A model generated the notes under the pieces. The model ran no database searches. It saw only the letters and a list, made by a program, of their open reading frames with translations, and was not told the DNA's origin. This document shows, one piece after another, positions 8,308 to 56,937 of a stretch of DNA of 64,000 nt; position 1 is the first letter of the stretch; every line of letters begins with the position of its first letter. A program made the translations under genes and the position numbers. The stretch lies in contig OZ242296.1 of assembly GCA_965207735.1 (NCBI GenBank), positions 4,352,001 to 4,416,000 on the forward strand, in the 5' to 3' direction. The stretch is from Candidatus Versatilivorator sp. (lineage in GTDB: Bacteria > Acidobacteriota > Terriglobia > Versatilivoradales > Versatilivoraceae).

Positions 8308-8638
8308 GGAGATTCCTCCTCTTTTGAACCGGCCATTCAATAGTAGGGATGCAAACCCTTGTCAACGGTTTGGCTCAGATTGGGGATAGAGGAGAGTTAA
8401 GAGCAAACTGGCACCTTTCCAATCACGCTTGTCTGAAACAACCGACAAAGACAAAAGAAAAAGAGTGATCCACGAAGGGACACTAAGAACGACGAAGGGA
8501 CACCAAGGTATTGAGGTGAACCGCGACGGGATGCCAAGGTCGCGAAGGGATAGCCGATTTCTGATTGTTTCACTTTTGGATGATCTGCCCGACAGGGCAG
8601 GGGCCTCGCTTGCCTGAAACAACCGACAAAAGACAAAG

Positions 8639-10125
8639 GAGCCTTTTGCAAAATTCGCAGATAGCGGGAATTTTCACGTGGGGAAAGATCAAGGAGGGCA
8701 GGTGGAAGGAGGGGCAAGACCACTGTCTGTTGTATCATGAAGGTGTCTGAACCACATGATGAACGGAGGTGGAACTTGCCCCTTAGGGAAACCCTATCAC
8801 GACACTGGTTCCGGTTTCAACGAGAGCTGTTTCCCCTGCTGGAGGAAGTTTTGGGGCCTCTGGGAGAGCGTTACCAGCGGCTGGTGCAGGTATTGGAGTT
8901 GGTGCGGGTGGAGGAGTTGCTGCCTTACAGTCGGGGCTGGCGTGGCCGGCCGCTGGAGGATCGGGCAGTGCTGGCGCGAGCCTATCTGGCGAAGTCGATG
9001 CTGGAGGTGGCGACCACGCGGGGATTGGTGGAGCGGCTGAGGAGTGAGGGGAGGCTGCGGCGGCTGTGCGGCTGGGAGAGGGCGTGGGAGGTACCGAGCG
9101 AGTCGACCTTCTCGCGGGCCTTTGCGGAATTCGCTGAGAGCGACCTGCCGGGGCGTTTGCACGAGGCATTGCTGGAGGAGACGCTGAAGGGCCACTTGGC
9201 GGGGCATGTGTCGAGGGACTCGACGGCGATTGCGGGACGGGAAAAGCCAGCGGCCAAGGCTGCGCCGGAGGCCAAGCGGAAACGCCGGCGGGGCCGGCCG
9301 CCGAAGGGCGAGCGACGGCCCAAGCGGTTGAGCCGGCTGGAGCGGCAGGGGTCGATGACGCTGGAGGAAATGTTGAAGGAGTTGCCCAAGGCCTGCGACA
9401 TCGGCGTCAAGCGCAACGCCAAGGGGCATCAGGAGAGCTGGACCGGCTACAAGCTACACCTCGACGCCATTGACGGCGGGATTCCGGTCAGTTGTCTGCT
9501 GACCTCGGCCTCGGTGCATGACTCTCAGGCAGCCATTCCGCTGGCGACGCTGACGGCAAGGCGGGTCGAGAGTCTCTACGACTTGATGGACAGCGCCTAC
9601 GATGCGCCGGAGATCCGGGCCTTCAGTGAGAAGCTGGGGCATGTGCCGATTATTGACGTCAACCCCCGCCGAAGAGCTACCTTGAAAGCCGAGCGGAAGC
9701 GGGAGGCACTGGCCCGGCGCTGTATCGGCCAAGTGACTCCCGAGGCGCGGCGCTACCGGGAACGCTCGACGGTGGAGCGGGTCAACGGACGGCTCAAGGA
9801 GGAGTTTGGCGGGAGGCAGGTGAGGGTTCGCGGCCCCGACAAGGTGAGGTGCCACCTGATGTTCGGCATTCTGGCCCTGACGGTGGATCAGTTGATGCGC
9901 CTGACGCTCTGAAGACCGGGTTGCCACCCCCAACCGCACAGCAGGTTCGCCCGCCTCAAGGCCGGGAGAGGGTAAGCTGTGCCTGCGTCCGGCGACCGCT
10001 GGCCATCCGGCCATCAGATTCGGGCTTTTTCCTTCAAAAGGGTCTTTGCAGCTGGGTAGTCACCGCCGGAACATCACTGTTGCCAGCCCAATGTCATGCC
10101 CGATTCCGAATTTTGCAAAAGGCTC
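8639..10125 (+). mobile_element. 1487-bp insertion sequence (DDE, IS4/IS5-like superfamily), copy 1
   Basis: Perfect 18-bp TIRs GAGCCTTTTGCAAAATTC (8639-8656 and 10108-10125); 4-bp target duplication AAAG (8635-8638 and 10126-10129). Confidence 0.95.
8737..9912 (+). CDS. DDE transposase (DDE_Tnp_1-like)
   Basis: PSESTFSR, RDSTAI, GYKLHL, VHDSQ, LMDSAYD, RY..RS.VERVN.RLK motifs; lies within the TIRs. Confidence 0.93.
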   Translation: MKVSEPHDERRWNLPLRETLSRHWFRFQRELFPLLEEVLGPLGERYQRLVQVLELVRVEELLPYSRGWRGRPLEDRAVLARAYLAKSMLEVATTRGLVERLRSEGRLRRLCGWERAWEVPSESTFSRAFAEFAESDLPGRLHEALLEETLKGHLAGHVSRDSTAIAGREKPAAKAAPEAKRKRRRGRPPKGERRPKRLSRLERQGSMTLEEMLKELPKACDIGVKRNAKGHQESWTGYKLHLDAIDGGIPVSCLLTSASVHDSQAAIPLATLTARRVESLYDLMDSAYDAPEIRAFSEKLGHVPIIDVNPRRRATLKAERKREALARRCIGQVTPEARRYRERSTVERVNGRLKEEFGGRQVRVRGPDKVRCHLMFGILALTVDQLMRLTL

Positions 10126-10273
10126 AAAGAAAAAGACTTATCCACGAAGGGGCACGAAGAACGACGAAGGGCCACTAACCCGCATTTCTCACCAGAGGTA
10201 GGAAGCATCGGTTCTCGGAATCTGGTAAAATACTCTTGTCTAAGGAGTTAACCAGATTCTTAAAGGAGAACCG

Positions 10274-11641
10274 ATGCCGACACAGTGTAACACCAAACCC
10301 CTGGAGTTTGAACCCCACGGCCGCCGCCGCGTGGTGGCTGATTTCGACGGCGGTCCCATCACTTCCGATGCCGGCTCCCTGCTGTTGCGCCGGGTGGATC
10401 GGGGCTTATCTCTCTCCGACCAGGTGGCCGACTGTTTCACCGATCACCGCGACCCCAAGCGGACCCAATACAGCCTGCGCACCCTCATCGCTCAGCGCAT
10501 CCGTGGCATCGCCCTCGGCTACGAGGATCTCATCGACCACGACCAACTCCGTCACGATCCCCTCATGGCCTTGTTTTCAGAGAAAGGCCGTCGTGGCGAC
10601 TCGCCTCCCCTGGCAGGCAAGAGCACCCTCAACCGACTCGAACACGCCCCCACCCAAGGCCCCACCCGCTACCACAAGATTGACCACGACCCCGAGGCCT
10701 TGCAAGCCCTCCTGGTGAAACTGTTTCTGCAAGCCCATCCCCAACCCCCCGATGAGATCATCCTCGACCTCGACGCCACTGACGATCCCCTCCACGGGGA
10801 ACAAGAGGACCGCTTCTTCCACGGCTACTACCGAGGCTACTGCTACCTGCCCCTCTACATCTTCTCGGGCCGCCATCTGCTCTCGGCCCTGCTCAGACCC
10901 GCCAACATCGATGCCTCCGCCGGCGCTCTGGAGCAGGTCCAGCGCATCGTCTCCCGCCTACGGCGTGTCTGGCCTCAGGTCAAGATCCTGCTGCGGGCCG
11001 ACTCCGGCTTTGCCCGTGAGGAGCTGATGGGGTGGTGTGAGCAGCATCAGGTCGACTATCTCTTCGGCCTGGCCCGCAACTCCCGCCTCCAAGACGCCAT
11101 CGCCCCCGAGTTGGCTCAGGCCCAGGCCCTCTCAGACCAGCAACAGCAGCCCGCCCGGATCTTCACCGACCTCTCCTACCGCACTCACAAGAGCTGGTCC
11201 CACGAGCGCCGCCTGGTCGCCAAAGCCGAGGTCCTGCCCCGCGGCCCCAACCCCCGCTTCGTCGTCACCTCTCTGTCGGTCCAGGACTACCCCGCCCAGT
11301 TCCTCTATGAGAAGATCTACTGTGCCCGCGGTGAGATGGAAAACCGCATCAAGGAGCAGCAACTCGACCTGTTTGCCGATCGCACCTCCACCCACTCCTT
11401 CCGGGCGAATCAGCTCCGGCTCCTGATGACCTCTTTCGCCTATGTGCTGGTGGAGGGCTTGCGCCGGCGGGCGCTGCAATCCACCTGCCTGGCCCGGGCC
11501 ACCGTCGGTTCCATCAGACTCAAACTGCTCAAGATCGGCGCTCAGGTCACCATCTCGGTCCGTCGCATCAAGGTCGCCATGGCTTCCGGATGTCCTTACC
11601 AGAGGGAGTTCCGCATCGCTTGGGCTCACCTGCCGCCCTGA
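10274..11641 (+). CDS. IS1380 family transposase
   Basis: FDGG.ITSDAG, GYEDL.DHD.LR.DP, LDLDATDDPLHG.QE, YCYLPLYIF, LRADSGF.RE, YC.RGEMENRIKE.Q, F.ANQLRL; AAGGAG RBS. Confidence 0.95.
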   Translation: MPTQCNTKPLEFEPHGRRRVVADFDGGPITSDAGSLLLRRVDRGLSLSDQVADCFTDHRDPKRTQYSLRTLIAQRIRGIALGYEDLIDHDQLRHDPLMALFSEKGRRGDSPPLAGKSTLNRLEHAPTQGPTRYHKIDHDPEALQALLVKLFLQAHPQPPDEIILDLDATDDPLHGEQEDRFFHGYYRGYCYLPLYIFSGRHLLSALLRPANIDASAGALEQVQRIVSRLRRVWPQVKILLRADSGFAREELMGWCEQHQVDYLFGLARNSRLQDAIAPELAQAQALSDQQQQPARIFTDLSYRTHKSWSHERRLVAKAEVLPRGPNPRFVVTSLSVQDYPAQFLYEKIYCARGEMENRIKEQQLDLFADRTSTHSFRANQLRLLMTSFAYVLVEGLRRRALQSTCLARATVGSIRLKLLKIGAQVTISVRRIKVAMASGCPYQREFRIAWAHLPP

Positions 11642-11863
11642 GGTGCCCTGACCCGACCGTCACTCCTGGCCCTTGAAGACGCGGCCACCAGGCCCGATGG
11701 CAGAGGTGTCGCTGTTTTCGAGGGAAAATGCCGCCTGAGGTTCCTCGGAGAGCCTCAGAAGCCTCCGCTGTTGGCCTTTGCCTACCGATCCAGCCACCAA
11801 CGTTGTTAAACTCGGCCTCAAATGCCTCCATGGCCCCTTTTACCGCTCCTGTGCGAACTCTGG

Positions 11864-12732
11864 GTAGAGTCGAGGACTGGCGCGTTGACTATAGGGTCCG
11901 GTGGCTATTCCGTCGCTTTCGCTTCGGGCCTCAGTCCGGCTCCCTTATCACGTTTCCAGTCCCCGCTCTCCGAACCGGACGTGCGGTTTTCCCGCATCTC
12001 GGCTCTCCAGTGGGATCATGCGTCTCGCACACAGGTCCCCGCTCGCATCCGTGGACGACTCCTATGGGATTGGCACCCGTCCCCCACTCCATCCACTTCC
12101 GCTCCCGGGTTGCCGCCAGGCCTGTTGATGCCCTGACGACGCCGTCCTCCTCCGACGACCCTTTCACTTTTGCATGTGATGCTTCCGGAGTCTCCGGCCC
12201 TTTTTTGGTCGGGGTTTCAGGCTTTCGCCACTCCCGGGACCCTTCCCCCTTCGGTCACCGCTCCTCACCTGAGGCCCCTTCCCTCCACCGGTATTACCCG
12301 GCTTCTCCGGTACTACAGGCCTCTCCGCCACCCTGTCGGCCTAGACTGACTCTCGCGAGCTTCCGGTTCGGTGCGTGCCTCACCACCCACAGGGCTTCCC
12401 ATGTTGCTGCCTTCTTCCCCTTCCATGCGTGCCAGCGCCACTACCCCGGCGGGTCCAAAGGGGTGCCCGCGTCGCTCGCTTCCCCCTCCGTCTTCGGCCT
12501 TCCCCATTTCTCAGGTGGGTCGGCCCCCGCATTGCCCGTTTCGAGGCCTGCTCGACGTTCACTCGCGTTCCGGCCCGCATGCTCGCTGAACCGCCTTAAG
12601 CGGCCCTTTGACACCAGAGGGCTTCAGACCATATCGTTACCTCCATGATCCGCCCTGGCTGCTACCAACCGGAGCGACAGTTGTTGGACGGGTTTCGCAC
12701 CCGTTGGAAGAAGGCGCCTTTCCATGGCGCAC
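11864..12732 (-). ncRNA. ORF-less group II intron (IIB-like), 869 nt
   Basis: Minus strand starts GTGCGCC (12732). Domain V is GAGCCGAGATGCGGGAAAACCGCACGTCCGGTTC (12005-11972) with the AGC triad and AC bulge. Domain VI ends CTCGACTCTAC (11864). D3-like GTAGTACCGGAGAAGCCGGGTAATACCGGTGGAGGGAAGGGG is present. EBS1 UGAGAAA sits in a CCCA/TGGG-closed loop. No RT ORF. Confidence 0.92.
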
Positions 12733-13132
12733 TGAGAAATGCGGGCTAAGGCGCTGAGGTTAACCGCGACGGGATACCAAGTTCGCGAAAGAATTGTCGA
12801 TTTCCGATTGTTTCACCCTCGGATGATCTGCCCGAAAGGGCAGGGGCTCGGCTTGTCTGAAACAACCGAGAAAAGAGTGATCCACGAAGACACACGAAGG
12901 ACCACTAAGGGCCAATAAGGCATTGAGGTGAACCGCGACGGGATTCCACGCTCGCGAAGGGATGATCGATTTCTGATTGCTTTACTCTCGAATGAACCGC
13001 ACTGCAGGTCGGGGCCGGACCAAACATGCACGCCGGTCTTGGCCGGAATCCCTGCCCTGCAATCCCATCGCCTTTCGACACCGATTAAGATACACTGGAG
13101 CCAACGATAGACTTTGAACCGGAGGGGGACTC

Positions 13133-56243: not shown

Positions 56244-56937
56244 AGTGATCCCTGGCGGGAAGGCCTCCAGCGCCTTGTCATCCAGCGGCACCTCAACGTC
56301 GGCTCCCGGTTGCGCGGCCTCGTCTATGAAGCCCTCGAAGAACAGAAGACCACAGATGGCCAAAGGCCGAGAAGGGCAAGGCTGGAGGATGCTCACAACC
56401 CGACATCTCCGGACTGCAGCACCGGCAGCTTGCCACCCCGCTCGACGTTCCCGGACGCAGAGTCTCGGGGGTTGCAACATCGTAAGACCTGTCCACCAAC
56501 GTCCTGAATAGTCCAGTGGATTCCCGTTCAAATAGAGGGATATAATGAGGGGATTACAACAGGACAAACCACAGTAAGTCTATTATAATGAGCAGTTACA
56601 AGTTTTCTGATGTAGTCGCCGCCTTCGCGGCTTTCTGGAACCCCAGGCCGGTGCCGCGGGGATCATCACTTGAATTCCTGTCTGCCGGCAGTGTTTTGCT
56701 GTAAGGGATAGCGGTGAAGCCGCGGTTGACTTAGGTCGGTTGAGGAAACGCCTCGTACAGGTCTTCCTTATAGAGCGGCGCAGCCGCGCCAGCAGGTAGC
56801 CCCGGGCGTGAGCCCGGGGTCGTTTGAACCCGGCGCTACCGTAGCCGCGTAGGCGGCGAGTTAGGAGCGTCCTTACCAGGACTCAGTGCCTCTTAAAAAA
56901 ACACCAAACAGTTACGGCTTCTCAAGAGGTCGCCCTC

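Follow-up and report, generated by a model that had tools for sequence, protein, structure and literature searches.

A protein-less group II intron of likely mosaic ancestry in the terminal inverted repeats of IS1380-family elements of Candidatus Versatilivorator sp.

The intron and its host element

The window analyzed here is a stretch of 64,000 nucleotides from Candidatus Versatilivorator sp. of the Acidobacteriota (assembly GCA_965207735.1, contig OZ242296.1, positions 4,352,001 to 4,416,000), which forms part of a single-contig 5.26-Mb genome (label G000:C1). It contains a group II intron without an open reading frame (ORF) for a reverse transcriptase (RT), located inside an insertion sequence (IS) of the IS1380 family (Table 1). 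The ends of the intron, 5' GTGCG and 3' CTCTAC, agree with the GUGYG and AY termini of group II introns, and two Rfam models matched its minus strand: group-II-D1D4-4 (RF02003) at 12706-12563 with 80.8 bits (cut-off 49), and Intron_gpII (RF00029) at 12007-11864 with 41.2 bits (cut-off 40). An initial annotation, made from the letters of this DNA alone, had proposed such an intron, and every coordinate that it gave was confirmed. The longest sense frame in the 869 nt spans 107 codons and lacks the YADD motif. The predicted fold had a z-score of -4.1 relative to 20 shuffles, and its domain (D) VI includes a bulged A that, judging from this model, may serve as the branch point. The remnant of DIV together with DV and DVI constitutes a conserved 3' module, where two-sided changes were observed at 11 of 125 predicted pairs among 10 copies compared.

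The host element combines an IS1380-type DDE transposase, terminal inverted repeats (TIRs), and a 4-bp target-site duplication, as in other members of its family. As initially described, the transposase gene is intact, with an ORF that passes the IS1380 model, and the intron lies 13 bp inside the right TIR with a single CTAA duplication outside. When the exons are rejoined, as would follow excision, the right TIR regains its full 19 bp and matches the left TIR at every base, while the two ends diverge beyond these 19 bp.

Table 1. Features of the intron-bearing IS1380 locus (window positions)
Feature	Position	Strand	Evidence or remark
Interspersed 'ACGAAG' repeat, left part, interrupted by the IS	10126..10174 (approximate)	+	
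Left target-site duplication CTAA	10175..10178	+	
Left TIR of IS1380, 19 bp, empty intron target	10179..10197	+	
IS1380-family DDE transposase, 455 aa, intact	10274..11641	+	PF13701 E 8e-150; NF033539 410 bits (cut-off 180)
Right TIR, inner 6 bp, start of intron 3' exon	11858..11863	-	First base C, putative intron-binding site (IBS) 3
ORF-less group II intron, 869 nt	11864..12732	-	Rfam matches, boundary alignment, predicted fold
Domain VI, ~105 nt	11864..11969	-	Predicted folds: long stem, bulged A near 3' end
Domain V, catalytic hairpin	11972..12005	-	Rfam match and predicted fold
Domain IV remnant	12010..12278	-	Structured core between decayed RT gene start and end; aligned to RT introns
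Ancestry-switch zone, DII/DIII to start of DIV	12272..12337	-	Informative-site maps
Exon-binding site (EBS) 1, UGAGAAA	12507..12513	-	In predicted d3 hairpin; complementary to TIR bases -7 to -1
EBS2, CGGGC	12534..12538	-	Complementary to -14 to -10 (final duplication base, then first four TIR bases); register scan
Right TIR, outer 13 bp, end of 5' exon (IBS1 and most of IBS2)	12733..12745	-	
Right target-site duplication CTAA	12746..12749	+	
Interspersed 'ACGAAG' repeat, right part	12750..12850 (approximate)	+	

Target sites and mode of spread

A BLAST search of the genome identified 28 copies of the ORF-less intron at 99.6-100% identity. All of them were located at the 3' edge of the TIR 13-mer (27 exact, one with a single mismatch), followed by CC, and the genome has 157 occurrences of this 13-mer where 0.14 are expected. 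Pairing of TIRs delimited 63 elements; after one 2-kb mis-pair was dropped, the remaining 62 included 21 full-length copies of IS1380 and 41 MITEs (miniature inverted-repeat transposable elements) of 130-254 bp. Six intron copies resided in IS1380 elements of 1,698 bp, 19 in MITEs of 130-246 bp, and three at lone TIR-like sites, such that the genome-wide tabulation of occupied and empty TIRs called for in the initial annotation gave 25 copies in paired elements. Among the occupied IS1380 ends, four were right and two were left, and both MITE ends were used. The earlier proposal of a non-autonomous intron specialized on IS and MITE ends, with two target sites per element, is thus borne out by a 13|14 register in the TIR common to all 28 copies.

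The same register was found in the genomes G005, G009, and G011. In another family of the class, MITE or IS1380 ends were used at 13|14 in G056 (MITEs) and at 12|13 in G048, and introns at such ends were also seen at L113 and L119, in records whose titles name Gemmatimonadota or Palauibacter. Targets of many other introns of relatives could not be shown to be TIRs. The introns of G047 and G055 were considered as TIR-homing candidates and not counted, as no partner TIR was found and a degenerate pattern search gave no match.

Target recognition was examined by the covariation of EBS and IBS sequences at loci from relatives, where two of 123 rows were skipped. EBS1, initially assigned to UGAGAAA, sits in a predicted hairpin, is complementary to the TIR, and covaries with the targets: 5.0 of six positions (-6 to -1) were paired over 27 distinct EBS1 hexamers, compared with 2.98 +/- 0.20 in 10,000 shuffles. 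The initial candidates for EBS2 fared differently. CGGGC, paired with positions -14 to -10, was the best of 40 register pairs scanned (z 6.4; 34 types, 101 targets), with 2.80 of five positions paired over the 34 types versus 1.90 +/- 0.14 in shuffles. At position -14, which is outside the TIR and forms the last base of the duplication, an A was present in five of five targets of CGGGU variants, and a G in 16 of 21 targets of the commonest CGGGC type. UGCGGG matched the window TIR at seven of seven positions, yet it was nearly invariant in the family and did not covary (3.07 versus 3.11 of seven, p 0.75), and it was therefore rejected. By analogy with IIB introns, the first base of the 3' exon, a C, is a putative IBS3. 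In relatives, sister introns with EBS1 UGUUAAU occupy the termini of an IS1634-family element, likewise at 13|14. In the window genome, ends of the IS1634 type occur at 24 sites (for example, G000:C1:824537-826620), and no intron with EBS1 UGUUAAU was found there despite these ends.

For the analysis of strand bias, the replication origin was set at the GC-skew minimum coinciding with dnaA (3.54 Mb). This replaced an origin at the global skew minimum of 4.51 Mb, under which 23 of 29 copies were oriented. With the origin at dnaA, 25 of the 29 introns sharing the EBS1 of the window copy lie on the lagging-strand template (p 1e-4), and the count rises to 26 if the skew-reversed segment of 3.98-4.51 Mb is treated as inverted, a choice made post hoc. 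This segment (G000:C1:3984693-4507577), which contains the window, likely reflects a recent inversion or a misassembly. The host elements had no such bias (10 of 21 IS1380 and 16 of 41 MITEs), and exact target sites were filled at 24 of 66 in one orientation versus three of 81 in the other. Since the introns are strand-biased, retrohoming with an RT supplied in trans is likely the main route of spread, rather than carriage as IS cargo, and co-transposition of an IS or MITE with its intron is at most a minor route. The bias also accounts for the lack of window-genome elements with both ends filled (zero of 62, p 0.036 if the ends are independent). A strict rule against the occupancy of both ends was abandoned, as strand bias explains the pattern and one MITE in G011 (L036) has both ends filled.

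Carriage as cargo had been suggested in the initial annotation: the transposase would still use the outer 13 bp, and units of IS plus intron would multiply by transposition. Alternative right ends are tolerated in the IS1380 family. The outer 13 bp and the duplication were intact in 21 of 26 occupied elements versus 24 of 36 empty ones, and introns clustered on MITE haplotypes in a raw permutation (p 0.005), but this clustering weakened in controlled tests, to p 0.06 for the 24 MITEs whose TIRs are intact and to p 0.09 when occupied MITEs alone were compared. Of the 528 pairs formed by 33 MITEs, a single pair was identical; its two members share the intron-bearing end but not their flanks, and may reflect a rare co-transposition event. 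However, another MITE with an almost identical haplotype carries the intron at its opposite end. Transposition would also randomize orientation, yet 25-26 of 29 introns follow the fork, which bounds a randomized share at about 0.2-0.3 (upper 95% limit 0.55-0.63). Additionally, both shared intron single-nucleotide polymorphisms occur in different host elements or ends, and the host elements and occupied ends are diverse. As the principal route, cargo transposition is accordingly considered unlikely. An explanation without RNA mobility, in which gene conversion of DNA among identical TIR elements would account for most of the spread or assembly would have inflated the copies, draws on the identity and abundance of the TIR repeats, on one locus that points to recombination between copies (L042, described below), and on the gene conversion reported between intron copies of c-Ha.de.I1 (PMC3522654). 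It is scarcely credible given that the insertions are base-exact, into different ends and lone sites with only about 15 bp in common, that they are biased in fork orientation, and that the register recurs in G005, G009, and G011 and in the MITEs of another family (G056). Exact pieces of the intron and the IS were also present in an independent contig set (run X1), which may be the source sample.

Several observations concern the surroundings of the occupied TIRs. An IS1182-family element (NF033551, 388 bits), flanked by CTAG duplications, is present in 13 copies (for example, G000:C1:5072668-5074255, L149), nine of which have their left end directly next to a TIR. IS1182-adjacent TIRs in the favored orientation held the intron in seven of seven cases, versus 18 of 57 other TIRs (p 0.0008), and this adjacency was not replicated in relatives, which offered few cases: zero of three were occupied in G009 (occupancy about 1%) and one of one in G011. 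Position-wise preferences upstream of the target were discarded, as few tests among many reached p<0.03 and these came mostly from IS1182 neighbors. A promoter-like match, TTGACA-18-TATCGT, is located in the 5' part of the intron (window 12608-12637, plus strand; 0.2 +/- 0.4 expected) and points outward through the TIR; by consensus only, it would face the IS1182 transposase gene in IS1182-adjacent copies. In G009, an IS1634-type element is inserted in an ORF-less intron copy (L046, G009:C1:550756-552839).

Mosaic structure and the RT-encoding introns

The genome contains 15 loci of RT-encoding introns, all of a local type. One of them (G000:C1:5004992-5006987) has the same EBS1 as the window copy and is inserted in a diverged IS1380, at its left TIR, and it represents the RT-encoding relative that the initial annotation had proposed to look for. 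Thirteen have EBS1 UGUCUUU and are mostly inside the 'ACGAAG' repeat, and the remaining one, with EBS1 UGUAAUU, is inserted in a palindromic repeat where an ORF-less copy of 90% identity and a 117-nt remnant are found as well. In the two RTs scanned, RVT_1 and GIIM domains were found, without an endonuclease (En) match. One RT shares 45% identity over 439 aa with Ni.ha.I1 (g3, former class F) versus 30% with Sr.me.I2 (g1), these two being the only exemplars compared. The C-terminal motif of class D, LX3AX3PXLF[V/A]HW (PMC4615759), was absent from the C-termini of four RT sequences inspected, and a search of plasmids returned only RTs at <60% identity.

The identity between the window copy and the RT intron of the same EBS1 was 93% in the first 455 nt and 73% in DV-DVI, while the local RT introns among themselves were 84-86% identical in the 5' part and 95-96% in DV-DVI. 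The 3' module, in turn, showed 92-99% identity across ORF-less copies that carry UGAGAAA, UGUAAUU, UGUGUAU, UGUGUUU, or UGUCUUU as EBS1 and come from six genomes (G000, G004, G005, G008, G009, and G011). Its DIV part was found in six of 14 genomes of the genus (G000 counted) and more weakly in G048, in a search of 61 genomes. Nine stretches were recovered in a metagenome scan with a module-specific 20-mer, all of them too distant (DIV 60-74%) to serve as a further test. Among the ORF-less copies, those named as mosaics are G000:C1:1134708-1135573, L162, L011, and L012.

Informative sites placed the switch between parents at intron nt 395-411 in L004, L012, and L162, and by nt 462 in the window copy. 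In approximately unbiased (AU) tests with 19 introns, the tree of each half was rejected on the other half (p 3e-45 and 6e-37). The DV-DVI clade of the ORF-less introns had a distant RT clade as its sister (bootstrap 99), while their 5' halves nested in the local clade by target; the wider tree included 33 of 39 loci, as six were missed by the boundary rule, with ORF-less 3' ends clipped by 27 nt. No RT of the distant sister clade was found in the window genome. L162, found in a later search, fits the prediction for a mosaic: its DIV is 99% identical to that of the window copy, while in the 5' half it shares 98% identity with the UGUCUUU RT intron against 85% with the window copy, and it is inserted in the target of that RT intron. 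A two-parent RT intron was also found in G009 (L042), with an IS1634 end as 5' exon and an IS1380 left end as 3' flank. Up to about nt 1500 it follows the UGUUAAU type (142 versus 38 informative sites) and thereafter the UGAGAAA type (52 versus three), and thus has the appearance of a crossover product between two introns.

A simpler origin, by ordinary deletion from local RT introns with EBS changed through point mutation, is documented for TeI3 (PMC2882425), and RT gene remnants do flank the deletion in the present introns. Two other ORF-less types, L020 (721 nt) and L112 (719 nt), are unlike the module in length, and the DV-DVI of L020 is unrelated. For the family of the window intron, however, this history is largely refuted and now very improbable. 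The mosaic appearance would have to arise from the conservation of DV-DVI or from convergence, whereas DV-DVI is 27% diverged from the local RT introns, which differ by about 5% from each other there; dozens of consecutive informative sites change parent at one point, and the AU tests reject a single ancestry. The target-reading 5' half was therefore likely acquired by recombination with co-resident RT introns. Taken together, the window intron is best explained, with fairly high confidence, as a protein-less element that likely spreads by retrohoming with an RT supplied by full-length introns in its genome and that likely gained its 5' half by recombination with them. A broader reading, which we hold to be somewhat favored on balance, is that the catalytic 3' module of about 410 nt (DIV remnant, DV, and DVI) is a portable non-coding satellite from a distant intron lineage. 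It would have repeatedly captured the target-recognition half of a co-resident RT intron, along with the enzyme and landing sites of that intron (IS1380 and MITE ends and two unrelated repeat families), and would outnumber the same-target donor by up to 28:1.

In the proposed mechanism, a resident RT would bind the DIV remnant and assist the splicing of read-through transcripts. With EBS1, EBS2, and probably EBS3 as guides, the ribonucleoprotein would then reverse-splice into exposed TIR DNA of the lagging-strand template, and priming by the nascent strand at the fork may follow, as for RmInt1 and RmInt2. Mobilization in trans is suggested by 28 near-identical copies at matched targets. Capture could proceed by crossover, gene conversion, or RT template switching near DII/DIII, any of which would join the 3' module to domain I of another intron. 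Since a crossover there would keep EBS1/2 and IBS1/2 together on one side, the recombinant would stay matched to its 5' exon, and the product would home to the targets of the donor and could start a new homing wave. Contigs from three RNA libraries of three studies covered the intron, including the DIV specific to ORF-less copies, along with pieces of RT-like sequence. These contigs are from relatives at 85-100% identity; strand, level, and splicing are not readable from them, contig depth cannot rank expression, and their sparse coverage of the transposase is uninformative.

A number of points weigh against this interpretation. The mosaics derive from assemblies of metagenome-assembled genomes (MAGs), and L042, as a single MAG locus, may be a chimera created in assembly. 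Two DIII sites are common to the three repeat-targeting mosaics that switch at nt 395-411, so these may stem from one capture followed by later exchanges of domain I. The z-values of the shuffle tests overstate significance because the compared introns are kin. The best alignment of the DIV remnant was with a distant RT intron, which makes binding of the remnant by local RTs an assumption. The window copy is itself one of the four exceptions to the orientation bias under a simple two-replichore model, and it fits only with the post hoc inversion. Finally, no splice or circle joint was found among the 15 of 32 contig joints inspected, on contigs from relatives.

Repeats and arrays associated with the RT introns included a GC-rich repeat with a central 19-bp palindrome, which occurs at 15 sites (for example, G000:C1:1135586) and holds introns in three of them: one RT intron, one ORF-less mosaic, and one remnant. 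The 117-nt remnant (G000:C1:4260992-4261108) consists of a 5' start fused to an ORF-less-type 3' end and sits exactly at the palindrome target. Head-to-tail intron arrays were observed at L076, L100, L108, L109, L112, and L121, where the L112 array is composed of two 719-nt ORF-less copies followed by RT-encoding copies.

Neighboring features and known systems

The 'ACGAAG' repeat that hosts the window IS1380 had no match to any Rfam family. The IS-free site of the locus had 375 BLAST matches in the genome, >200 of them across the repeat core. The repeat is also present at window positions ~8420-8640 and 12860-12990, and it is the target of four IS1380 copies among those with inspected flanks. 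Upstream of the IS1380, a second transposase gene (window 8737-9912, plus strand) encodes DUF772 and DDE domains and is IS1182/IS5-like, below the curated cut-offs. An Acido-Lenti-1 RNA was identified at window 56774-56819 on the minus strand (47.7 bits).

The closest precedent for homing into TIRs is RmInt2 of Sinorhizobium meliloti GR4, for which insertion into both inverted repeats of ISRm17, an ISNCY-family IS (PMC10194956), was shown experimentally (PMC4615759; PMC5894124). The novelty implied for TIR homing in the initial annotation was overstated in light of that work (PMC4615759). The window intron resembles RmInt2 in the En-minus type, the use of both IS inverted repeats with two sites per element, the lagging-strand bias, and the EBS1/2/3 pairing; En-minus retrohoming with a bias to the lagging-strand template is described for both RmInt2 and RmInt1 (PMC4615759). 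RmInt2 belongs to class D, encodes its own intron-encoded protein (IEP), has seven copies, and targets an ISNCY-family IS. In contrast, the window intron is ORF-less, class F-like, and of mosaic make-up, with 28 copies in IS1380 and MITEs and with sisters at IS1634 ends in the same register. Features in common with Ni.ha.I1 of class F or g3 (PMC3552965; PMC3753933) are a similar C-terminus of the putative helper RT, the lack of En, EBS1 plus EBS2, and a long structured DVI of the kind described for IIF introns. Strand bias has also been reported for introns of class F or g type and for ORF-less introns (PMC8919778).

ORF-less copies mobilized in trans are known from TeI3 of Thermosynechococcus elongatus, where they have one local deletion origin (PMC2882425). 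As in TeI3, the ORF-less copies outnumber the RT-encoding ones, keep remnants of the ORF ends, and form families with different EBS. TeI3 arose from a single deletion in a local intron followed by parallel divergence, its EBS families are separate from those of RT introns, and the TeI4 IEPs include an En domain. Unlike TeI3, the window family has EBS types common to ORF-less and RT introns, a 3' module of distant origin, and a TIR target, and its sequence does not have one ancestry along its length as a deletion from a co-resident RT intron would. Both TIR homing and ORF-less trans-mobility thus have precedents, and the window intron as first framed is a clean new example of them. Long-tract exchange between related intron copies within one genome is likewise known from c-Ha.de.I1 (PMC3522654), where the conversion is described as a single divergence-inflating event, not as the gain of a target by an ORF-less module.

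What is new here is the mosaic make-up of the ORF-less intron. The capture of domain I from co-resident introns by an ORF-less module was not reported in full-text literature searches, which covered few subscription papers, nor in the available portions of PMC4424553, PMC2882425, PMC2504315, PMC8919778, PMC5894124, and PMC3522654. The described route to a new target specificity is the mutation of EBS, and the mosaic adds a wholesale swap of domain I. If true, the satellite reading would represent a natural domain swapping that retargets a ribozyme at a reusable seam near DII/DIII. Since one closed genome combines 28 ORF-less copies with 15 RT loci and three EBS types, it becomes testable which RT drives which RNA, whether IS ends are silenced by the intron, and whether class F-like introns can be retargeted at DII/DIII. 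ORF-less bacterial introns are described as rare in a review, which suggests that non-mobile derivatives do not persist (PMC4424553); in contrast, the ORF-less module described here persists across at least six genomes of one genus.

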